Of a DNA stretch of 46,241 nucleotides, positions 31,752-46,241 are shown piece after piece. Numbering within the stretch: position 1 is the stretch's first letter; every line of letters starts with the position of its first letter. Position numbers and translations under genes: made by a program. The notes under the pieces were generated by a model. That model ran no database searches and was not told where the DNA came from. It worked only from the letters and a program-made list of their open reading frames with translations. The stretch comes from Gammaproteobacteria bacterium (GTDB lineage: Bacteria; Pseudomonadota; Gammaproteobacteria; SZUA-152), in contig WFQM01000164.1 in assembly GCA_015487095.1 (NCBI GenBank), positions 1 to 46,241 on the forward strand, in the 5' to 3' direction.

Positions 31752-33125
31752 ATGAATGTTAAAAAAATAGTCATGTCATTTATTGTGCCGATAACCGGCC
31801 TGACTTTGTTAAGTGAAAGCTCAATTGCAAGAAATTATCATTATGACCAATTGCCTCCTCCATCTATCGATAGCAATTTTTATGACAATGGCAACCCAAC
31901 GGAAGCTAAAGTTGCATTGGGTAAATTTCTTTTTTTTGATAAAATCCTCAGTGGTAACCAAAATACTGCGTGTTCAACATGCCATCATGGTCTGACTGAT
32001 ACAGGTGATGGTCTGTCTTTGCCGGTCGGTGAGGGCGCGCGTGGTATAGGCGTGACTCGTGATACGGGTACCGGGGCTGATGCGATTCATGAACGTGTTC
32101 CACGTAATGCGCCACCACTATTTACGTTAGGCGCAATTGAAATTGATACACTGTTTCATGATGGGCGTGTCGAGATCGATGCCACACAACCCAGCGGTTT
32201 TAGTACCCCTGCAGGTGATGATTTACCTCTGATTCTTGAGAATGTGCTGGCAGCACAGGCTATGTTCCCGGTGACATCCGCAACGGAAATGGCGGGTCAG
32301 CCGGGGGAAAACCCGATTGCTGATGCTGTAGCTGCAGGAAATCTTGCCGGTGTTGGCGGAGTCTGGCCACAACTTGCTGATCGCTTACGAAACATACCGG
32401 AATATGTTTCAATGTTTAACGAGGCCTTTGGTGTTACAGCTGATCAAATCACATATGCACATGCGGCCAATGCAATATCAGCATTTGAGCGAGTTGCCTG
32501 GCGTGCTGACAACAGTCCCTTTGATCGTTTTCTCCGGGGCAATAAAAAAGCCATGAGTAAATCAGCAAGGAAAGGAATGAGGCTGTTTTATGGTAAAGCC
32601 GGTTGTTCCGGTTGCCATAGTGGTACATATCTGACCGATATGCAGTTTCACGCGATAGGGATGCCGCAGATTGGTCAGGGGAAAGGGCATGGGGAAGATG
32701 GTTATGAAGATATGGGGCGTGCCTCAGTAACCGGTGATGAGACTCAACGGTATCAATTCCGCACACCTCCTTTACGCAATGTCGCTCTGACCGGACCTTG
32801 GGGTCATTCCGGTGCTTTTGATACATTGGAAGGCATTGTGCGTCATCATCTTGACCCGGAAACATCGCTGGATAATTATGATTGCAGTACAGAGCCCCGG
32901 TTACCTTCGCGAGCAGACCTCGATATGCATGATTGTTTTGTTATGAATGATCCCGCATTGGTAATGAATATCAAGGATGCGAATGAGCTTGAAAAAGTAC
33001 ATCTTAATGAGAAGAAAATTGCTTACCTGATGGATTTTTTACATGCGCTAACAGATCCAGACAGCGTCGATATTAGAAACGATGTACCAAGAAGAGTGCC
33101 AAGCGGTTTGTCTCTTGTTGATTAA
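31752..33125 (+). CDS. Di-haem cytochrome c peroxidase-family protein (second, divergent paralogue)
   Basis: Signal peptide, CSTCHH and CSGCHS haem sites, and FRTPPLRNVALTGPWGHSGAFDTLEGIV. GAGGG SD 8 nt upstream. Confidence 0.9.
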   Translation: MNVKKIVMSFIVPITGLTLLSESSIARNYHYDQLPPPSIDSNFYDNGNPTEAKVALGKFLFFDKILSGNQNTACSTCHHGLTDTGDGLSLPVGEGARGIGVTRDTGTGADAIHERVPRNAPPLFTLGAIEIDTLFHDGRVEIDATQPSGFSTPAGDDLPLILENVLAAQAMFPVTSATEMAGQPGENPIADAVAAGNLAGVGGVWPQLADRLRNIPEYVSMFNEAFGVTADQITYAHAANAISAFERVAWRADNSPFDRFLRGNKKAMSKSARKGMRLFYGKAGCSGCHSGTYLTDMQFHAIGMPQIGQGKGHGEDGYEDMGRASVTGDETQRYQFRTPPLRNVALTGPWGHSGAFDTLEGIVRHHLDPETSLDNYDCSTEPRLPSRADLDMHDCFVMNDPALVMNIKDANELEKVHLNEKKIAYLMDFLHALTDPDSVDIRNDVPRRVPSGLSLVD

Positions 33126-37255: not shown

Positions 37256-38239
37256 TTAACCGCCAATTTTTGACATGAACCGAACCACCTGTTGTGGCCT
37301 GTCTGTAAAGTTGTGGCGCTCCGGTTTCAGCGCAAGTGCATTATTCAGCAACGTTTTTAATTCAATGTCACTCAAACCCTGACGCAAAGTTTCCCGTAGT
37401 TCGATCATATGTTCATGTCCCAGGCACAAAAAAAGTGTGCCAGAGGCTGTCAGGCGTACACGGTTACACGTTTCGCAAAAATGTTGGGATATGGGGGTAA
37501 TAAACCCAATGCGAAGGTTACGGCCTTTCACCTGAACATAACGTGCAGGACCGCCTCCCGGCATAACACCGGGAATGAATTCAAAACTTTTTTGTAGTTG
37601 TTTTTCAACATCATGAAGATCAAGGTAATGTTCACTGCCTTTGCGACCGGCTGCACTGATTGGCATGGTTTCAATAAAACGCAGGGTGAAGTCGTGTTCG
37701 AGACAAAAATTCACCATGTCATTAAATTCATCGTCATTAATGCCTTTCATGGCCACCATGTTGATTTTGAGCGGTGCAAACCCTGCGGCTTTGGCTGCCA
37801 TTAATCCATCCAGGGTGTCTGACAGTTCGCCACCATTGATATTACGAAATCGTTCGGGTTTCAGTGTGTCCAGGCTGACATTGATACGGGTGATGCCGGC
37901 CTGTTTTAATCCTCTTGCATGGTGTGCCAACAGGCTGGCATTGGTGCTGAGTGACAGGTCTTCCAGCCCTGGCAGGCGGGAAAGGCGGGTGGACAATTCA
38001 CACAGGTCTTTGCGCACAAGCGGTTCTCCCCCGGTCAGTCGTACCCGGCGAACGCCCATTTCGGTGAATGCGCTGACCACTCGCACTATTTCATCCTGCG
38101 TGAGTTGTTGGGAAGGCGGATTGAAATCGTTGTAGCCTTTGGGTAAACAATAAAAACAACGCAGATTGCATTTATCGGTCACTGATAAACGCAGGTATTC
38201 GATTTTTCTGCCAAAAGGGTCAATCAGTTGCGGAGTCAT
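37256..38239 (-). CDS. moaA: GTP 3',8-cyclase MoaA (molybdenum cofactor biosynthesis)
   Basis: LRLSVTDKCNLRCFYCLP radical-SAM cluster, LTGGEPL, C-terminal cluster FCETCNRVRLTASGTLFLCLG, and a terminal GG. Start placed at MTPQLIDPFGRKIEYL (38239), 1 nt after the regulator's stop. Confidence 0.9.
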   Translation of the reverse strand: MTPQLIDPFGRKIEYLRLSVTDKCNLRCFYCLPKGYNDFNPPSQQLTQDEIVRVVSAFTEMGVRRVRLTGGEPLVRKDLCELSTRLSRLPGLEDLSLSTNASLLAHHARGLKQAGITRINVSLDTLKPERFRNINGGELSDTLDGLMAAKAAGFAPLKINMVAMKGINDDEFNDMVNFCLEHDFTLRFIETMPISAAGRKGSEHYLDLHDVEKQLQKSFEFIPGVMPGGGPARYVQVKGRNLRIGFITPISQHFCETCNRVRLTASGTLFLCLGHEHMIELRETLRQGLSDIELKTLLNNALALKPERHNFTDRPQQVVRFMSKIGG

Positions 38240-38240
38240 G

Positions 38241-39713
38241 TCAGTTGGCCTGGTCGGGATGTGTATCGTCTTCCTGGTCGTCATCCATGTCAGAGTGTGT
38301 TCCGTCCGGGTTGGTTAATGCAAAGTGTTTAATCATGCGGCGCAGGCGAGGTCGGGATACACCGAGAATGTCGCATGTATTGCCTTTGTGCCATTGGGTC
38401 GCTTCGAGGACACGTTGTACGTGAGCCTTTTCAATATCTTCCAGACTCCACTCACTCAGTGATTTTTGTTCACCCTGATTATCTGCCGACTCGACATCAC
38501 AAATATCACTGATGAGATCCCGGGTGATCACATTACCCGGACAAAGGGCGACAGCTTTTTCCAGGGTGTTTGCCAGCTCGCGTACATTACCTGGCCAGCT
38601 GTGGCTTTCCAGGCTGGTCATGACATCGGAGGCTATTTGGGTGACATTGCGATTCATTTGTTTATTGATGCGTGCCAGTAATGTCTGTATCAAATCGACA
38701 ATATCCTCCCGGCGTTCCCGCAATGGCGGCAGATGGATGGTTACCACACGTAACCGGTAATAGAGGTCTTCGCGGAACAGGCCTTCGCGTACCCGGTCTT
38801 CGAGGTTTACATTGGTGGCAGCAATCACCCGTGCGCTGCTTTGTTGCGGTGCTTTGGCTCCCACAGGGGTGAATTCTTTTTCCTGCAAAACCCGTAACAG
38901 TTTTGCCTGCATGGTGGGTGAGAGTTCACCTATTTCATCCAGAAAAATAGTGCCGTTATCGGCCAGGGCAAACTTGCCGGGCTGTCGGTTCACCGCTCCG
39001 GTAAAGGCTCCCTTTTCGTGACCAAACATATCGGACTCCAGCAATGTTTCTACCAATGCCGCACAGTTAATGGCGACAAAGGGGCCGTTGGCATTTTTGC
39101 CTGCCCGGTGAGTGGCATTGGCCACCAGTTCTTTGCCGGTGCCGCTTTCTCCGGTGATCAATACGGTAACCGGGCTGTCGGCTACCAGGCCGATAATTTT
39201 GAAGACTTCTTTCATGGCGCGACTGCGTGCCACCATGGTATTGGCCAGAGGTGCCAGGTCTACCTGATGCGTGTTAACGGTGGTCTGGTCACCGGGGTTC
39301 AGTACGCGTGCGGCTGCCTTGTCGAGTTCTTCAATATCAATGGGTTTGTGAATATAGTCTTCGGCACCGTGTTGCATGGCTTCAATGGTGCTGTCCATAT
39401 CATGAAAGGCGGTGATCATGATGACATGGGTTTCAGGAAAAGCTCGTTTAAATTCCGGAAGACCTTCCAGTCCGGATTTTCCCGGCATGCGAATATCGAG
39501 AATAACCAGATCGGGACATTGCTCATAAGCCGCCGCCATGCCCTGATCAACACTGTGTGCAATGCTGACATCGTAACCTTGGCTGCTTAAGTGCAGTTGT
39601 AAGGTTCTACAGCTGGCGATGTCGTCATCGACAATCAGTATGTGTTTTTTCCGGATGGGTGAAACGGTTTCCATGGTATGTAATTCACTGAGTTTTTTGA
39701 TTGCGATGTTCAT
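38241..39713 (-). CDS. Sigma54-dependent (NtrC-family) response regulator
   Basis: REC (LVILDIRMPGKSG), AAA+ (GESGTGKE, GHEKGAFTGA, GAFTGA loop) and a C-terminal HTH (GNTCDILGVSRPRLRRMIK). ATGA overlap with the kinase gene. Confidence 0.9.
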   Translation of the reverse strand: MNIAIKKLSELHTMETVSPIRKKHILIVDDDIASCRTLQLHLSSQGYDVSIAHSVDQGMAAAYEQCPDLVILDIRMPGKSGLEGLPEFKRAFPETHVIMITAFHDMDSTIEAMQHGAEDYIHKPIDIEELDKAAARVLNPGDQTTVNTHQVDLAPLANTMVARSRAMKEVFKIIGLVADSPVTVLITGESGTGKELVANATHRAGKNANGPFVAINCAALVETLLESDMFGHEKGAFTGAVNRQPGKFALADNGTIFLDEIGELSPTMQAKLLRVLQEKEFTPVGAKAPQQSSARVIAATNVNLEDRVREGLFREDLYYRLRVVTIHLPPLRERREDIVDLIQTLLARINKQMNRNVTQIASDVMTSLESHSWPGNVRELANTLEKAVALCPGNVITRDLISDICDVESADNQGEQKSLSEWSLEDIEKAHVQRVLEATQWHKGNTCDILGVSRPRLRRMIKHFALTNPDGTHSDMDDDQEDDTHPDQAN

Positions 39714-42304
39714 AACTCTACAGGTCCTATAGGTAAGATAACACGAGCACAGGCACCATTGTTTTCATCCGTGTCCAGGCTGATTTGGCCATGGTGCTGA
39801 TCCAGTATGCGCTTGACGATGGATAGACCCAGGCCGGTACCTTTGGCGCGGGTGGTGAAAAAAGGCTCGAACAATTTATCTTTTTGTGCGGGATCAATAC
39901 CATTGCCATTGTCATGAATGTCGATGCGAATAGCCGGAGTAGCATTATCCACTTCCACATGGGCGTTAATGCGAATGTTGGGAATGTGGTTAACACTATC
40001 CGCAGATTCCAGGGCATTCATGATCAGGTTGCTGAATACCTGTCGTAGCTTAGTGGCATCACCATGAATAGTTGGCAGTTGTGGTTGGTATTCGGTAATA
40101 ATTTTAGCATCGTACTTTTGTATGGTTTTTTGTGTGGTGTTGATGGCCGAATCGAGCAATTTGTTAATGTTCAACCATTCCGGGTTCAATGCATCGGGTC
40201 GTGAGAAGGCTAACAGGTCGGCGAGGATGTTTTCCATGTAGCGGACTTGATCCAGTGAAATTTGTTTCATTTCTTTGGCTTCTTCACCCCAGGATTCCTC
40301 GGCGCGTTTGCCCCAAATTTGCAAGGTCATTTTGATGGAGGAAAGCGGGTTGCGCAGGTCGTGGGCAATCATGGTGGCCATGCGTCCCATGGCTGTCAGG
40401 GTTTGGGTGCGGGCAATTTCCTGGTTTCGTTCTTCCACTTCTTTTTTCAGGAGCATGTGCTCCGTAATATCTTCCTTTATGGCTAGGAAATGTGAAATCT
40501 TACCCTGCTCATTACGAATAGGGGATATCATGGTGTCTTCCCAGTAAAGTTCCCCGTTTTTTTTGCGATTGTGAAAAACACCACGCCATTCGTTGCCTTG
40601 TTTTATTATTTCCCAAAGCTGGTGGTAGTCGATATCGCTGGTCTCTCCTGATTTCAGAATACGCGGTGTCTGACCCAGTATTTCTTTTGTACTATATCCG
40701 GTTAGCTCTGTAAAACGGGGGTTGATGTATTCAATAATACCCTGTGCATCGGTAATCATTACCGAGTTATAACTTTGCTCAACGGCGCGGGACAGTTTGC
40801 GCAATTGTTGTTCTGATTCGCGTTGTTGCGTAATATCCTGACCAATGCTGGTAAGCGTAGTGACTTCGCCAAAGCGGCCACAGGAGAGTGTGTTGGTCCA
40901 TGCGAACAAACGTGGTTCGCCGGTTTTTGCCATAATATGGCTTTCGACAGTATGCGGAGGTGCATCGCCGGTAATGATTTCTGTATAGGCGTGACGTGTG
41001 CGTTGTCTGTCTTCCGGAATGACGCAACTGTCAAACCAGTCCTGGCCGGTGATCTCTTTTTGCTGCCAGCCAGTCAGGTTGAGCAGGTAATCATTACAGA
41101 AGGTGATGCGGCCATCGGCATTGAGAGTGACTGCCGCCAGTTGCATGTTTTCCAGTGTGTCGTGGTAGCGGCGTTCAAAGTTTTTTTGTGCCTGTTCCTG
41201 TCGTCGGCGTGTTGCCGTTTGCGCAATGATTAATGATCCTGCCAATAAAAACAGTCCACCTAACATATAGGATAACAAGTGCTGGCGGAAAAATTCCTGA
41301 GATGTGGCATTGAGTGCTTTGGGTGAAACATGGGAGACAATTTTCCAGAAGCGGGGTTTGGCATTCTGTTGTCCTTCGGATACGGAGGAAATATCCCCCA
41401 TGCCGGCTTCGGCATAAAACTCCAGTACGGATACCATGGGATAGACAATAGCAAAAGTGAATAGTCCTTTTTCAGTGACAAAACTGCCTGCGTCCTGGGC
41501 TAAAATTTTTCGCCAGGCATCAGGAAAAGCCTGGGCAAAAGAATGCTCGCGTTCCAGCAGGAAAGCCCATTCATTTTCCGGGCGCGGGCCACTTAACCAG
41601 TAACCTTCATTATTAACAAGATTAAGGTGGTCGGCGATGCTGGACGCTGCCTGACGAAAACCCTGAATCAGTTTCTCACCACGAAAATTGAACATCAGCA
41701 CACCTTTTTTTTCTCCCCGGCTGTTGAACAGGGGGGTGGCAAAGCGGATGGCCGGGCGCAGGGGGTATTCAATTTCTCCTTCTTCAACATTCAGGTCAAA
41801 GGGCGACATGTAGATTCCGCCAATATCCTGGGCCAGGGCTTCCTGAAAATAATAACGATCACTTTTATTTTGTAATTCACTTTGTGCCAGGATGTTAGGG
41901 TTACCTTCGTCATAGTTGATACGGATAATTTCCATGCCATCATCGGATAAAAAGCGGATCTGGTCATAGATACCTTTTTTTTCACTGAAATAAAGGAATT
42001 CCTGGGATAGATTTAAACGCGCGTCTTCGTCTTCGGGGTTGTCCAGCAAGTCCCAAAGCTCATTGAGCTTGGCAAGAAAGGTGAGGTCGGAAATCACGGC
42101 ACGCATTTCGCTGATAAGTCCTTTTTGCGCCAGGGTGACATTTTTCTGTTCGCTGCTTTCCAGGCTGATGCGTGCCAGTTTCATCGCGGTGTAATAATGG
42201 CTTATGCCAATGCTAATCAGCAGCAGAGATAGTGGCAGAAACACCAGTAAAAAACGCCTGAGCAGCGGTGGGGGACGATCAGTATTCTGGCTCGCCGGGG
42301 TCAT
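39710..42304 (-). CDS. Membrane sensor histidine kinase (periplasmic Cache-like domain, two PAS, HisKA, HATPase)
   Basis: TM1 at aa ~15-35 and TM2 at ~345-365 flank a Cache-like sensor. Two PAS modules (ITFCNDYLLNLTGW.., IIEYINPRFTELTGY..). H-box MIAHDLRNPLSSI. N/G boxes NLIMNALES, DNGNGI, GTGLGLSI. Confidence 0.9.
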   Translation of the reverse strand: MTPASQNTDRPPPLLRRFLLVFLPLSLLLISIGISHYYTAMKLARISLESSEQKNVTLAQKGLISEMRAVISDLTFLAKLNELWDLLDNPEDEDARLNLSQEFLYFSEKKGIYDQIRFLSDDGMEIIRINYDEGNPNILAQSELQNKSDRYYFQEALAQDIGGIYMSPFDLNVEEGEIEYPLRPAIRFATPLFNSRGEKKGVLMFNFRGEKLIQGFRQAASSIADHLNLVNNEGYWLSGPRPENEWAFLLEREHSFAQAFPDAWRKILAQDAGSFVTEKGLFTFAIVYPMVSVLEFYAEAGMGDISSVSEGQQNAKPRFWKIVSHVSPKALNATSQEFFRQHLLSYMLGGLFLLAGSLIIAQTATRRRQEQAQKNFERRYHDTLENMQLAAVTLNADGRITFCNDYLLNLTGWQQKEITGQDWFDSCVIPEDRQRTRHAYTEIITGDAPPHTVESHIMAKTGEPRLFAWTNTLSCGRFGEVTTLTSIGQDITQQRESEQQLRKLSRAVEQSYNSVMITDAQGIIEYINPRFTELTGYSTKEILGQTPRILKSGETSDIDYHQLWEIIKQGNEWRGVFHNRKKNGELYWEDTMISPIRNEQGKISHFLAIKEDITEHMLLKKEVEERNQEIARTQTLTAMGRMATMIAHDLRNPLSSIKMTLQIWGKRAEESWGEEAKEMKQISLDQVRYMENILADLLAFSRPDALNPEWLNINKLLDSAINTTQKTIQKYDAKIITEYQPQLPTIHGDATKLRQVFSNLIMNALESADSVNHIPNIRINAHVEVDNATPAIRIDIHDNGNGIDPAQKDKLFEPFFTTRAKGTGLGLSIVKRILDQHHGQISLDTDENNGACARVILPIGPVEL

Positions 42305-42627
42305 CGACAGGTGTCCTTGATGTGTTTTCGGACACGGGTAAGGTAAGCCGATTCGGTTTCTTCCGGTTCGCGTGGTAATAAAAAAAGCAGTTTTGCGGCG
42401 ATAATATAGGGGCGGCGTGAATTGTCACCGGCAGGCCGTGGCGCACGTATCACCTGTTCGAGGTGAATCAGGGTACTTTGCGGGTTATCGCAATAACGGG
42501 GAAGCGAGACATGTTCGCTATAAGAACGGGCCCATGCCGAAATCAACAACATGACTAACAGTACCACTCCTGTAATGCGCAGGAAAAGCAGGTTGTCGGG
42601 TTGTTTGGCCTGTTCTGGCGTGGCCAT
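42301..42627 (-). CDS. Small membrane-anchored hypothetical protein (108 aa)
   Basis: One N-terminal TM (FLRITGVVLLVMLLISAWA) and a ~70-aa C-terminal domain with two Cys. GGAG SD. Its stop overlaps the kinase start (ATGA). Confidence 0.55.
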   Translation of the reverse strand: MATPEQAKQPDNLLFLRITGVVLLVMLLISAWARSYSEHVSLPRYCDNPQSTLIHLEQVIRAPRPAGDNSRRPYIIAAKLLFLLPREPEETESAYLTRVRKHIKDTCR

Positions 42628-42642
42628 GGTTTAATTTCTCCA

Positions 42643-44058
42643 TCAGTATCTTGGGGATAGCGGGTTTAGGGGTAAGTCAGGTAATTTTTCCTTTTCCGTG
42701 CCTGGCATTAATTGTCCGGCAATCTGCTGTGCTAGTTGCTGCCCTCGGGCAATACGGTCACGGACTGAAATACCTCCTCTATAGTTGGCTTCAATATGCA
42801 GGCCGGGTAGTGCCTGTAACTGTCGGCTAATGGCATGGTCCCTTGACAGATGGGCACCGTGATATAGGGGTAATGCCTGGGCATGGCGGTGGATGCGCAC
42901 CATTTCCGGGTTGCCTTTTATGTGTAACAGGGGAGTGAGGGCACGTAGTGCCTCATCAAGTAGACGGGAGTCATCCCAGTTTGCTGCTTTGGGGTGGCGC
43001 GCACCGCCAAGGTAGGTCGTCAGCAGCACTTTGCTCGCCGGAGCACGATCACAAAACAGGCTGCTCATCCACAGATTACCGGTGAAGGGCTGCTGCTCTT
43101 GCCGGGGTGTGAGAAAACCGGTGCCGTCCAGGGTGTGTTTCACTTGACTCCGGTCCAGCCCCATATGCAATACGGCCAGTGGCGCATACTGAATACTGTC
43201 CAGTAATGTTGCCAGTTCATCGTCAACAGAAGCAACAAGCCGCGCCGCTGCCGGGGCGGGTGTTGCCACAACGACGTGAGCGGCATTAAGACTGCGTTCG
43301 CCGTCAGAAGTCATGGCCGTTACTGACCAACTTTTTTGATGGGGTATTATTTCCTGCACCTGTCGATTGGAGAAAACCTGCACACCTGCGGTGCGAGCCA
43401 AAGTGTTTACCAGTGTGCTCATACCGCCCCGGAAAGAAAAACTGTCAACAGTGCAGGCGGTACGACGGCGCAGTATTTTATGAGTCAGCACACCGGCGGT
43501 GATGGAGCCGAAGCGACGCTCCAGTGCGGTTAAGCGGGGCAGGGTGGCTCCTGCGGAGGCCAGATCCGGATCTGCCGCCAGGGTACCGGCGATAAAAGGC
43601 TCCATGGCTTTTTCCAGCATTTCATTGCCCAGACGGCGGCGAATAAACTGACTGACTGTTTCGTCTTCGCTACCACCGGCGGGAATGAAAGGCTCCAGTA
43701 ACAATCGCAGTTTGCCACGCAGGCTCCACAGCGGAGAGGTCAGCATGCCGGTGATGTGCATGGGCAGTGCCTGTAATTTGCCACGGTGCAAGAGATAACG
43801 ACGTGCCTGGGGCAGGCGTTGGGTTTTCAGCGCATCCAGCCCGGCTTCGCTTACTAGCTGTGCGACTTCGGGACGGAAATTCATCAGCAATGATGCTGCC
43901 GGTTCAGTGAGATATCCTTCCTGCTGCTGACTTTTTATTTTACCGCCGGGGCGGTTATCGGCCTCCCATACCTGTACGGATACCCCTGCCCGGGCCAGCC
44001 ACCAGGCTGTGGAGAGTCCCGAGATACCACCACCGATAATGATGACATCGGTATTCAT
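42643..44058 (-). CDS. FAD-dependent protoporphyrinogen/coproporphyrinogen oxidase-like enzyme (HemY/CgoX family)
   Basis: N-terminal dinucleotide fold VIIIGGGISGLSTAWWLA..G..V.V.E...R.GGKI. Family-typical SxxGKLRLLLEP, ETVSQFIRRRLG and FSFRGGMSTL. C-terminal GLHIEANYRGGISVRDRIARG. Confidence 0.75.
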   Translation of the reverse strand: MNTDVIIIGGGISGLSTAWWLARAGVSVQVWEADNRPGGKIKSQQQEGYLTEPAASLLMNFRPEVAQLVSEAGLDALKTQRLPQARRYLLHRGKLQALPMHITGMLTSPLWSLRGKLRLLLEPFIPAGGSEDETVSQFIRRRLGNEMLEKAMEPFIAGTLAADPDLASAGATLPRLTALERRFGSITAGVLTHKILRRRTACTVDSFSFRGGMSTLVNTLARTAGVQVFSNRQVQEIIPHQKSWSVTAMTSDGERSLNAAHVVVATPAPAAARLVASVDDELATLLDSIQYAPLAVLHMGLDRSQVKHTLDGTGFLTPRQEQQPFTGNLWMSSLFCDRAPASKVLLTTYLGGARHPKAANWDDSRLLDEALRALTPLLHIKGNPEMVRIHRHAQALPLYHGAHLSRDHAISRQLQALPGLHIEANYRGGISVRDRIARGQQLAQQIAGQLMPGTEKEKLPDLPLNPLSPRY

Positions 44059-44071
44059 CGTTTTGGTAGCT

Positions 44072-44150
44072 GGGTGGGCATGCTTTTTTGCCCACGCGGA
44101 TGTTGGCGATATTCACAATACCCGCGTGGGCACAAAAAACGTGCCCATCC
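44072..44150. repeat. Pair of inverted REP-like hairpin units (BIME-like)
   Basis: Unit 1 GGGTGGGCATGCTTTTTTGCCCACGCGG (44072-44099) and unit 2 CCCGCGTGGGCACAAAAAACGTGCCCATCC (44121-44150) are near reverse complements. Each can fold by itself (TGGGCA../..TGCCCA). Confidence 0.7.
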
Positions 44151-44196
44151 TGCAATTGCGTCGGGTTGTATTTTTTTATTTAACATTACCTTTATC

Positions 44197-44279
44197 GTAG
44201 GTTGGGGTGAGGTACGAACCCCAACATGCTGAGGTTGAATTAACACCGCTGTTGGGGTTCGTACCTCACCCCAACCTAC
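44197..44279. repeat. Perfect 30-bp inverted repeat (second REP family)
   Basis: GTAGGTTGGGGTGAGGTACGAACCCCAACA (44197-44226) and its exact reverse complement (44250-44279) are separated by 23 nt. Each arm holds an internal GTTGGGG/CCCCAAC hairpin. Confidence 0.85.
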
Positions 44280-44283
44280 ATGT

Positions 44284-46241
44284 TTATTGTTTAACATTGT
44301 CTTTCAGTTTCTCCTTCATCTGTCCTAACAATTCCTGACCCAGCAAATCACCGGGATGCTCGCGTGCATCCACAAATTCACGAATGGTGTTGAAGCGTTT
44401 TACTGCTTCCGGGTTTTCTTTCAGTCTGGGGACTTTGTTTTTGGCGATATCAAATGCATCAAAACTGAGTTCGGTCATACCAAAACCTTTCATGCGTTGT
44501 ACCGCACGCATCATGGCGCGGTTGCGAAACCGGGTGAGGTCGCCGGAGCCGATAACTTCCAGTCCCTCGCGTCGGGCGTTAAACTCGGCCGCTTTTTTGA
44601 TACCGGCACGCACAAAATCAGGTGCGCTGGCAACACGTTTGGCGGCTTCCTGCGACCATTCCACACCGCCAGTGAAAACCTCCATGGCCTGTAATACATC
44701 CTGATCTGTCACCTGACGGGCACGACGTTTTTTGGTGACTTTTTCGGCTTCGGCCTCCAGTGCCGGCGTAACGAATAAACGGACTTCACGGGCTTTGCCT
44801 GCCAGACATTCCTTCACGGTTGCCTCGGCTTCGGCTGACCAGTCAAACTTGCGCTCCAGTTGATCTTCACTTTCCAGCCGGTCGAGCAATTTGATGTTGA
44901 CCTCAAGCCGTCCTTCGGCCCGTGCGATATCTTCGGCCACAGCCTGTACGCCTGCGGCCAAAAAAGCGGGCATGGTGGCCAGGCGCTCACGCGCCTCCTG
45001 ACTCCAGGGCAGGTTTTTACTGGCCTCATCAAAGGGTGAGTTTTCATGGCCAGGCATACCCGGTGGTCCTGCATCACCAAAACGCTTGGCGGCAAGAGCG
45101 GCCATGTGTTCGGTAGTTACCGCATGTTCGCCCAGTTCCTGCACATGGGCTTCGGCACGATTTTTCACCATCTTGCGCAGGAAGGAAGGCACACGTTGCA
45201 GGCGTTGTTCGGCCTCTGTGGTCCAGGTGATTTGGGAGGGGGTCTCTACTAATGGTTGGATCACATCTGCCCCTTGAGGCTGGTAACTGCACCAGGGGTC
45301 GGTATCCATGAGACTACCTCCCATCGCCAATGGTCGGGCACGACAGCCACCGCATAATTGCTGGTATTCGCACTGACCACATTTACCGTCAAGCTGAGGG
45401 TGTCGCAGAAGCCCGAAGGTTTTGGATTGTTCCCAGATATCCCAAAAAGCGGTTTGGCGAAGATTACCTTCACTGTCAGGAATATAGGGGCAGGCAGTAA
45501 CATCACCTTCCGGGGTGATGCGGCAATAATGAATACCTGCCAGACAGCCACCACCTTCATAACCTTCGGCCCGGGTGAGCATCGAACGGGCATCGTGCTC
45601 ATAGGCAATACGTTTGAAATGCGGTGCACAACGGGCGCGGATTAACAGTTCCTGATACTGGCTTTGCGCCTCCACCAGTTGATTCAATACCCGTTCGTAA
45701 GTAACAGGGCTGATATCCGACATGGACTCACCCCGTCCGGTGCAGATCAAAAAGAAGATGTTAAGTACCTTCGCACCACTGGCGTGAGCGAAATCAATCA
45801 TGGCGGGTATTTCACCGGCATTATTTTCAGTCACTGAAAAGTGAATCTGAAAAGGTAATTCAAAATGACGACAAGCCTCGATGCCTGCCAGGGTTTTTTC
45901 CCAGGCTCCGGTACGGCCCCGGAAACGGTCATGTTGCTCAGGGTCCAGTGAATCCACACTGATTCCCATGCCCAATGCACCCGCGAGCTTGAGGGATTGC
46001 ACCCGTTTTTCTGTGAGCATCATGCCGTTGGTGCCCACCACCATGGACAGGCCACGGCGGGTGCCGTGGTTAATCAGGCTTTCCAGGTCGGGGCGTAACA
46101 ATGGTTCGCCCCCCGTAAGCACCACCATGACCTCGGTGGTTTGTTCAGCGATTTGATCCAGTAACTGACAAACCTCTTCACGGGTTAATTCATCAGCGCT
46201 GCCATTTTGCAAAGTATCGGCATCAAGATAGCAGTGCGCAC
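44284..46241 (-). CDS. Radical-SAM/SPASM enzyme (NirJ/AhbD-like core) fused to four PCP_red-like repeats; N-terminus outside window
   Basis: In-frame codons upstream of the track's TTG read ..AHCYLDADT, the tail of a CxxxCxxC motif. Also VLTGGEPLL, and a SPASM region GGGCLAGIHYCRITPEGDVTACPYIP...CGQCEYQQLCGGCRARP...DPWC. Four W-x2-EA...P-x-F-[VL]-R...G repeats follow (nt 44515-45231), then a ~75-aa tail. Confidence 0.85.
   Translation of the reverse strand, partial: AHCYLDADTLQNGSADELTREEVCQLLDQIAEQTTEVMVVLTGGEPLLRPDLESLINHGTRRGLSMVVGTNGMMLTEKRVQSLKLAGALGMGISVDSLDPEQHDRFRGRTGAWEKTLAGIEACRHFELPFQIHFSVTENNAGEIPAMIDFAHASGAKVLNIFFLICTGRGESMSDISPVTYERVLNQLVEAQSQYQELLIRARCAPHFKRIAYEHDARSMLTRAEGYEGGGCLAGIHYCRITPEGDVTACPYIPDSEGNLRQTAFWDIWEQSKTFGLLRHPQLDGKCGQCEYQQLCGGCRARPLAMGGSLMDTDPWCSYQPQGADVIQPLVETPSQITWTTEAEQRLQRVPSFLRKMVKNRAEAHVQELGEHAVTTEHMAALAAKRFGDAGPPGMPGHENSPFDEASKNLPWSQEARERLATMPAFLAAGVQAVAEDIARAEGRLEVNIKLLDRLESEDQLERKFDWSAEAEATVKECLAGKAREVRLFVTPALEAEAEKVTKKRRARQVTDQDVLQAMEVFTGGVEWSQEAAKRVASAPDFVRAGIKKAAEFNARREGLEVIGSGDLTRFRNRAMMRAVQRMKGFGMTELSFDAFDIAKNKVPRLKENPEAVKRFNTIREFVDAREHPGDLLGQELLGQMKEKLKDNVKQ

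Follow-up and report, generated by a model that had tools for sequence, protein, structure and literature searches.

A conserved radical SAM and HemY-like gene cassette that co-occurs with a cytochrome bd-like oxidase in sulfur- and iron-oxidising Proteobacteria

This work concerns two adjoining genes at the end of contig WFQM01000164.1 (C164), whose entire 46,241 nt, called the window below, belong to a metagenome-assembled genome (348 contigs, 96.8% complete) of a gammaproteobacterium. One gene encodes a radical S-adenosylmethionine (SAM) enzyme of the AhbD/NirJ2 type with a tail of PCP_red domains, and the other encodes a HemY-like flavoenzyme. We found that this pair is one copy of a cassette that is conserved and horizontally patchy and consists of a USP-PCP_red gene, the radical SAM-PCP_red gene and the HemY-like gene, and that it is not the main haem pathway of the organism. 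The cassette is probably a late-tetrapyrrole module dedicated to a CydA-like, bd-like oxidase with c-type cytochrome partners, and not a supplier of bulk haem. The late steps of haem synthesis in bacteria, for which three routes are recognised, count as essentially solved. In the present case, two enzymes of those routes recur as a tight pair in bacteria that already have a complete route, and the pair carries its own HemY clade together with tetrapyrrole-lid domains as in a chlorophyll enzyme. The carriers are sulfur and iron oxidisers that abound in vents, sediments, groundwater and animal symbioses, and hydrothermal vent metagenomes hold DNA nearly identical to the window. If the link to the oxidase holds, the cassette would provide a direct handle on how bd-like oxidases are equipped and which haem they use, and because cultured carriers exist, among them Aestuariirhabdus litorea (GCA_003864255.1) and Sedimenticola hydrogenitrophicus SN1189, the idea is open to bench work.

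The cassette and its conservation

The radical SAM gene, the spacer behind it, the HemY-like gene and the genes that follow are read from the minus strand, and the central part of the locus is laid out as follows.

44284..46241, minus strand: AhbD/NirJ2-like radical SAM/SPASM enzyme with a C-terminal PCP_red array (profile matches; 5' end cut by the contig end)
44059..44283, no strand: spacer of 225 nt resembling repetitive extragenic palindromic (REP) elements or bacterial interspersed mosaic elements (BIME), with two different palindrome pairs (fold, dispersed copies)
42643..44058, minus strand: HemY-family flavin adenine dinucleotide (FAD) porphyrinogen oxidase of the cassette-linked clade, 471 aa (TIGR00562, PDB matches, tree)

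The gene-order survey covered 80 genome loci from Beta- and Gammaproteobacteria, which range over Gallionellaceae, Sulfuricellaceae, Sedimenticolaceae, Thiothrix, Thiodiazotropha and tubeworm symbionts. The HemY-like gene lies directly 3' of the radical SAM gene in 73 of the 80 loci; most exceptions are contig ends, and three loci (L106, L111 and L117) are without it inside a contig. A protein with tandem USP domains and four PCP_red modules is encoded 5' of the radical SAM gene in 74/80 loci. The two genes of the pair are thus strongly co-conserved, so that a lack of co-conservation in relatives, which a preliminary description of the window had named as one finding that would speak against its idea, was not seen, and their junction is usually tight, with a median gap of 7 nt and an overlap of the reading frames at 21 of 67 junctions. 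Additional genes of the gammaproteobacterial form encode a HEAT-repeat protein whose repeats are CpcE/NblB-like, a secreted protein of 248 aa, a small membrane protein, a kinase and a sigma-54 regulator. Beyond what the preliminary description covered, the locus comprises the upstream USP-PCP_red gene, the PCP_red tail of the radical SAM enzyme, a downstream sigma-54 two-component system and the tie to a bd-like oxidase. In the present assembly, the upstream half of the cluster is on contig C338, which starts inside the USP-PCP_red gene (C338:1-236, its first 78 codons); C164 breaks off 21 codons into the radical SAM gene, and the roughly 2 kb between the two contigs, with the break in the repeat-rich USP-PCP_red gene, are unassembled.

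The same preliminary description had placed the HemY-like gene on the same strand directly downstream of the radical SAM gene with REP elements in between, and the repeats are indeed dispersed in the genome: a 21-mer of one spacer unit has 8 copies on 8 contigs, and a 16-mer of the other has 15 copies on 10 contigs. The spacer consists of two long palindromes with a predicted RNA fold of -120.3 kcal/mol (z = -12.35), and a scan of its gene strand for sigma-70 promoters and terminators gave nothing above chance. We conclude that the 225-nt spacer was inserted locally, in this lineage, at a junction whose usual form is tight or coupled. An open reading frame (ORF) of 80 aa on the minus strand (44055-44297), bridging the radical SAM and HemY-like genes, is composed of the REP palindromes and has no family match; it arises from the repeats and should not be annotated as a gene.

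The secreted 248-aa protein of the cluster (C338:387-1130, minus strand; L031:11907-12653, minus strand) has a signal peptide, a Cys-x2-His-x2-Met stretch (ECDAHDFMH) preceded by HNIH, and a CarboxypepD_reg-like beta-sandwich after that stretch. The ECDAHDFMH stretch resembles an amicyanin-type blue-copper site, and the protein may carry electrons in the periplasm for the bd-like complex.

Co-occurrence with a bd-like oxidase

In close relatives, the gene divergently upstream of the cassette encodes a 644-aa protein, and genes for c-type cytochromes come after it; in the present assembly, this bd-like operon is on the other contig, C338. Only an N-terminal portion of the CydA model, positions 2-251, is matched by the 644-aa product. 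A preprint by Murali, Gennis and Hemp on the cytochrome bd superfamily (bioRxiv 10.1101/2021.01.16.426971) describes its quinol-site-less families OR-C and OR-N in the same way and gives their cofactors as not characterised. The oxidase linked to the cassette is like these families in matching CydA only N-terminally and in having c-type cytochromes after it, whereas radical SAM, HemY or haem-synthesis neighbours do not appear in the searched text of that preprint.

Among 41 relatives, in which the present genome is counted, a HemY-like orthologue occurs in 7, belonging to three genera, and the bd-like gene is present in exactly these seven cassette carriers and in 0/34 non-carriers. A divergent CydA-like gene was also found in 14 of 15 diverse carriers. 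In a class-wide sample of one genome per family (150 families, completeness at least 90%), four genomes have the bd-like gene; all four have the HemY-like gene and three have the radical SAM gene, the HemY-like gene of the fourth lying at a contig start. Neither the radical SAM gene nor the bd-like gene was found in the remaining 146 genomes. In a clade member of 40% identity, genes for a CydA-like protein, three cytochromes c, the HemY-like protein and the radical SAM-PCP_red protein form one string, and in the cultured Aestuariirhabdus litorea the bd-like and cytochrome c genes diverge from those for the secreted protein, USP-PCP_red, radical SAM-PCP_red and HemY-like proteins. One relative (G021) has two bd-like CydA homologues, on its contigs C83 and C44, with 87% and 58% identity to the query, and in other lineages the CydA-like gene has a small ORF in front of it (38 aa in L130 and 46 aa in L134).

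Upstream of the bd-like gene, at a distance of about 450 nt, a sigma-54 -24/-12 element, TGGCCTGG(T/A)TGTTGCT, is present in 6/6 loci and in the present genome (C338:4250, plus strand), and it is the sole match to the pattern in each locus of 15-21 kb (L031:15807, plus strand; L038, L039, L041-L044). This element was observed directly, as were the protein families, motifs, linkage and co-occurrence, and its conservation fits control by the sigma-54 activator encoded in the cassette operon; the NtrC-family regulator of that operon is likely to be the activator of the bd-like sigma-54 promoter.

Haem synthesis in the carrier genomes

The present genome encodes HemF (456 bits), HemN (630 bits), HemJ (169 bits) and one ferrochelatase, HemH (390 bits), and no ChdC was found in it. 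Profile searches of the genome recovered the HemY-like gene of the window and gave no second HemY, no further radical SAM enzyme of the AhbC/NirJ type and no AsnC_trans_reg2 domain, which is found in AhbA/B and NirDLGH; there is no real copy of cytochrome cd1 (NirS), as the Cytochrom_D1 propeller matches are weak (at most 40 bits). The haem d1 and sirohaem routes were rejected for this genome on the grounds that NirS, AhbA/B/NirDLGH domains and a second AhbC/NirJ-type enzyme are missing from it. A similar picture was obtained for the 15 diverse carriers, which include the complete genome of Candidatus Ferrigenium straubiae: HemN is present in 15/15, HemJ in 12/15, a single ferrochelatase in 14/15 and ChdC in 0/15. 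The radical SAM-HemY pair was not found in 34 of the 41 relatives, and four other relatives have a HemY of 31-37% identity with no adjoining radical SAM gene.

Because the genome has a complete protoporphyrin route, the other carriers largely keep these hem genes and most relatives do without the pair, the pair is accessory. The idea of the preliminary description that it forms a hybrid or alternative main haem branch is not supported for this genome; nor is this HemY its only protoporphyrinogen oxidase, a situation which had been named beforehand as one that would speak against the idea, as HemJ is present. With HemJ present and an orthologue in few relatives, the HemY-like protein does not look like a housekeeping protoporphyrinogen oxidase, and with no ChdC and a single ferrochelatase it does not have the context of the CgoX of a coproporphyrin-dependent (CPD) route. 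The AhbD-like enzyme could stand in for ChdC, which would make a CgoX function possible.

The idea of "AhbD grafted onto a CgoX route" has already been published for Gram-positive CPD organisms that lack the other Ahb enzymes (PMC13564367). In the literature searched, we found no paper on a PCP_red-tailed radical SAM enzyme, a USP-PCP_red partner or a separate HemY clade, and none on such a pair in Proteobacteria with a full protoporphyrin route or on a link to a bd-like oxidase; the databases name these proteins just "radical SAM protein" and "protoporphyrinogen oxidase".

The radical SAM enzyme and its PCP_red tail

The preliminary description took the radical SAM enzyme to be AhbD/NirJ-like with a SPASM domain, and this assignment stands at the family level: the best profiles are NirJ2 (TIGR04055, 290 bits) and AhbD (TIGR04545, 278 bits), though both scores are under the 500-bit cut-offs, and the Radical_SAM and SPASM profiles match as well. 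The AhbD-type score in the genome-wide profile search was 280.5 bits, and the AhbC, NirJ, PqqE and MftC models reached at most 138 bits, far under the scores for AhbD and NirJ2. NirJ of haem d1 synthesis (TIGR04051) was rejected as a candidate at 134 bits against a cut-off of 515, with no NirS and no NirDLGH domain in the genome. The reading frame has 651 codons and runs off the contig end, so that about 21 N-terminal residues are missing, including the first two cysteines of the CX3CX2C motif. It begins at the third cysteine; an orthologue of 97.5% identity has CNLACAHC at this position, and CNLACxHC is found in each of the nine other aligned members.

The eight SPASM cysteines (C204, C232, C250, C287, C290, C296, C299 and C317, that is, CX27CX17CX36CX2CX5CX2CX17C) are invariant in 33 orthologue sequences. 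Their spacing fits the full AhbD SPASM motif, CX20-33CX17CX36-37CX2CX5CX2CX17-35C, which binds two auxiliary clusters in Methanosarcina barkeri AhbD (PMC10452713), and the enzyme looks catalytically intact from its sequence. Its likeness to AhbD extends over the whole core, which spans the model from position 19 to its last, 339, to the CX3CX2C motif of the orthologues, to the eight-cysteine spacing shared with the M. barkeri and Desulfovibrio enzymes, and to the pairing with a HemY-type oxidase, as for AhbD in CPD organisms. It differs from AhbD, which has no tail, in a C-terminal extension with between one and four PCP_red modules (Pfam scores three here), in its scores of 278-290 bits against the 500-bit cut-off, in its occurrence in Proteobacteria with a complete protoporphyrin route and without AhbA/B/C, ChdC or a dedicated coproporphyrin ferrochelatase, and in travelling with a USP-PCP_red partner and a bd-like oxidase.

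The PCP_red matches fall within the C-terminal 300 residues of the radical SAM enzyme (three stretches, 89.8 bits, cut-off 32.5), and the USP partner has four stretches (161 bits). PCP_red is what we take to be the tetrapyrrole-lid domain of BchB. The helical module of about 45 residues in both proteins is the same as the C-terminal domain of BchB/ChlB (PF08369), but in this cassette it forms tandem arrays that are joined to a radical SAM enzyme in one case and to a tandem USP protein in the other, and its hosts are non-phototrophic sulfur and iron oxidisers with no context of dark-operative protochlorophyllide oxidoreductase (DPOR). Relatives of the radical SAM-PCP_red fusion number in the thousands at 60-70% identity, and they occur in Gallionellaceae, Sulfuricellaceae, Nitrosomonadales, Thiothrix, Sedimenticola, Thiodiazotropha and tubeworm symbionts.

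The HemY-like oxidase and its clade

The HemY/CgoX layout that the preliminary description assigned to the flavoenzyme was borne out, with the motifs it quoted present and a TIGR00562 score of 254.9 bits (cut-off 97.85); Pfam Amino_oxidase matches with 179 bits. The motifs are IIGGGISGL (residues 7-15, containing the FAD motif GGGISG at 9-14), SLRGKLRLL (112-120) and RGGISVRDRI (427-436). The nearest solved structures are the protoporphyrinogen oxidase (PPO) of Myxococcus xanthus (2IVD, 200 bits), tobacco PPO2 (1SEZ, 190 bits) and Bacillus subtilis HemY (3I6D, 155 bits). In tobacco PPO2, numbered here from the alignment, Arg98, Leu356, Leu372 and Phe392 are what we take to be substrate-site residues; the counterparts of the first three are R87, L316 and L329, which are invariant or nearly so in the cassette clade, and the Phe392 site is occupied by Y349, B. 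subtilis HemY likewise having a tyrosine. HpnE and carotenoid desaturases were also considered for the flavoprotein and rejected at no more than 75 bits, against 255 for PPO.

A tree of the cassette proteins and the 150 best cluster representatives out of 1.8 billion proteins was built with FastTree and IQ-TREE. The cassette HemY-like proteins form one clade with 23 representatives, among them a Nitrospirota protein and an A. litorea protein, and this clade is set apart from 118 generic HemY proteins (FastTree 99, SH-aLRT 99). Its signature residues are A55, Y349, H392, L396, R433 and R435, and the two arginines belong to the C-terminal FAD motif (GG-I/V-SVRDRI), at positions that hold G/P/N and Cys in generic HemY proteins. 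The closest outgroup is a HemY of Nitrospiria, encoded in a hemE-hemH-hemY string beside ccm genes, an order which we take to resemble the hemEHY operon of B. subtilis.

As judged from its sequence, the HemY-like protein looks catalytically intact, and it forms a lineage of its own. It is homologous over its full length to the PgoX (2IVD, 1SEZ) and CgoX (3I6D) enzymes, with which it shares the FAD fold motif and the counterparts of Arg98, Leu356 and Leu372; it differs from them in its separate clade, its tyrosine at the Phe392 site and two clade-specific arginines, in an operon that pairs it with a radical SAM enzyme and not with hem genes, and in that HemJ is also present in the genome. Between the two types, the scores favour the PgoX structures, while Tyr349 and the hemEHY-like context of the outgroup resemble the B. 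subtilis type. In two unrelated contigs, FGE-sulfatase-like genes lie directly 3' of HemY (L132:8707-10565; L047:13981-14790), L132 also having a CarboxypepD_reg-like gene after HemY, and one of these two HemY genes falls just outside the cassette clade.

Proposed function and alternative explanations

In our favoured reading, the cassette serves as a late-tetrapyrrole module for the bd-like oxidase, and the substrates, step order, product, hand-over and regulation given here are those that we infer. The HemY-like flavoenzyme would oxidise a porphyrinogen, most likely coproporphyrinogen III and possibly protoporphyrinogen IX, and the radical SAM enzyme would then carry out an AhbD-type oxidative decarboxylation by which propionate side chains become vinyl groups. 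The PCP_red modules of the radical SAM enzyme and its USP partner may hold or cap the tetrapyrrole, in the manner of the homologous BchB domain in protochlorophyllide reductase, and the product would be passed to the oxidase, whose operon would be switched on by the PAS kinase and the sigma-54 regulator of the same operon as the pair.

Several points weigh against this reading. A coproporphyrin route needs iron to be inserted into coproporphyrin, and the carriers have only one ferrochelatase, presumably of the protoporphyrin type. HemY-type enzymes normally use O2, and radical SAM enzymes are oxygen-labile. With a score under the AhbD equivalog cut-off, the radical SAM enzyme may catalyse another reaction than AhbD does, and that the cassette proteins act on the same molecule and deliver the product to the oxidase is something we infer from sequence. 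In Ferrigenium straubiae, moreover, the pair is not adjacent to the CydA-like gene and lies about 25-35 kb away from it, and the genomes behind the co-occurrence counts (7 of 41 relatives, 4 of 150 families) are kin and not independent, so that these counts describe a pattern and overstate the statistical support.

It is possible, though we doubt it, that the cassette makes a haem-type cofactor other than haem b for the oxygen-reducing site of the bd-like oxidase, such as a mono-vinyl haem, one altered in another way or a chlorin-type haem, or that it feeds a privately channelled haem pool; a product other than bulk haem b was also the second option of the preliminary description. The two-arginine HemY clade may then act on a more acidic porphyrin or porphyrinogen and pass its electrons to the radical SAM enzyme and not to O2. 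Such a product would be in keeping with the distinct HemY clade, whose changes (Y349, H392, R433/R435) lie at or near the substrate and flavin region, with the position of the radical SAM enzyme below the AhbD equivalog cut-off, with the bulk haem b already supplied by HemF, HemN, HemJ and HemH, and with the strict co-occurrence of cassette and bd-like gene, the cofactors of OR-C and OR-N being described as not characterised in the preprint (bioRxiv 10.1101/2021.01.16.426971). Ordinary chemistry fits equally well, however, given that the AhbD motifs and the HemY substrate-site residues are conserved. A main haem branch of hybrid or alternative type, in which CgoX yields coproporphyrin III, the ferrochelatase coproheme and the AhbD-type enzyme haem b without oxygen, is unlikely in our judgement. 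It would agree with the closeness of the radical SAM enzyme to AhbD and NirJ2 and its full AhbD SPASM motif, with the hemE-hemH-hemY string around the nearest non-cassette HemY in Nitrospiria, with the tyrosine that Y349 and B. subtilis HemY have in common at the tobacco Phe392 site, and with the published occurrence of AhbD in CPD organisms (PMC13564367). The genome contents point the other way: the protoporphyrin route is complete (HemF, HemN, HemJ, HemH), neither this genome nor the 15 carriers have ChdC, a second ferrochelatase is absent from this genome and from 14/15 carriers, the carriers retain HemN (15/15) and HemJ (12/15), and haem is evidently made in the 34 of 41 relatives for which no cassette was found.

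The two remaining explanations separate the pair from each other or from tetrapyrroles. Redundant bulk-haem isoenzymes for different oxygen regimes, with HemY as an O2-dependent protoporphyrinogen oxidase and the radical SAM enzyme as an anaerobic decarboxylase that share no joint sequence of steps, seem quite improbable to us. Pairs of O2-dependent and O2-independent enzymes are common in bacteria, HemF and HemN of this genome being an example, and the PAS kinase of the operon may sense redox state or O2; yet joint expression is indicated by the stop/start overlaps at 21/67 junctions and the nearly universal adjacency, the partner with which both genes co-occur is the bd-like gene and not the hem genes, and the carriers retain HemN and HemJ. 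We attach very little probability to a pair that has nothing to do with tetrapyrroles, namely a SPASM peptide-modifying maturase beside a generic amine oxidase or desaturase. Many SPASM enzymes mature peptides, and the radical SAM enzyme does match the PqqE, MftC and sactipeptide models, but these peptide-maturase matches reach at most 106 bits against 278-290 for AhbD and NirJ2. The HemY-like protein exceeds the curated PPO cut-off and keeps the substrate arginine, PCP_red is the tetrapyrrole-lid domain of BchB, and the cluster contains no conserved gene for a precursor peptide.

Downstream genes and other features of the locus

The genes 3' of the HemY-like gene have ends that overlap or nearly abut, with the stop of the small-protein gene overlapping the start of the kinase gene, and they are the following.

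42301..42627, minus strand: small protein of 108 aa; a single transmembrane helix is predicted (residues 10-28 are hydrophobic)
39710..42304, minus strand: membrane-anchored PAS sensor histidine kinase (PAS and kinase profile matches)
38241..39713, minus strand: sigma-54-dependent NtrC-family response regulator (TIGR01818, 419 bits, below the cut-off and assigned at the family level only)
37256..38284, minus strand: MoaA (GTP 3',8-cyclase) paralogue at the operon end (TIGR02666, 370.5 bits, cut-off 284)

The 108-aa protein has no Pfam or NCBIfam match; it occurs in 43/80 loci, each time between the HemY-like gene and the kinase gene, and it goes with the gammaproteobacterial form of the cluster. 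The kinase is kept 3' of the HemY-like gene in 41 of the 80 loci, and the sigma-54 regulator in 39. Elsewhere in the window (31752-33125, plus strand), a gene for a MauG-like di-haem peroxidase, whose best match is a His-Xaa-Ser system-associated family at 267 bits (the cut-off of 340 not being reached), stands alone after an AT-rich tract. The MoaA gene comes after the regulator gene in 7/7 close relatives whose contig extends that far, and the genome has a second MoaA (contig C119:8517-9503) with 62% identity to that of the cluster. On a Nitrospirota contig (L131, 8408-9179), a HemY-like gene of the same clade is followed by genes for a molybdate transporter and MoeA. Together with the MoaA of the cluster, these Nitrospirota neighbours hint at a tie between the island and molybdenum cofactor supply.

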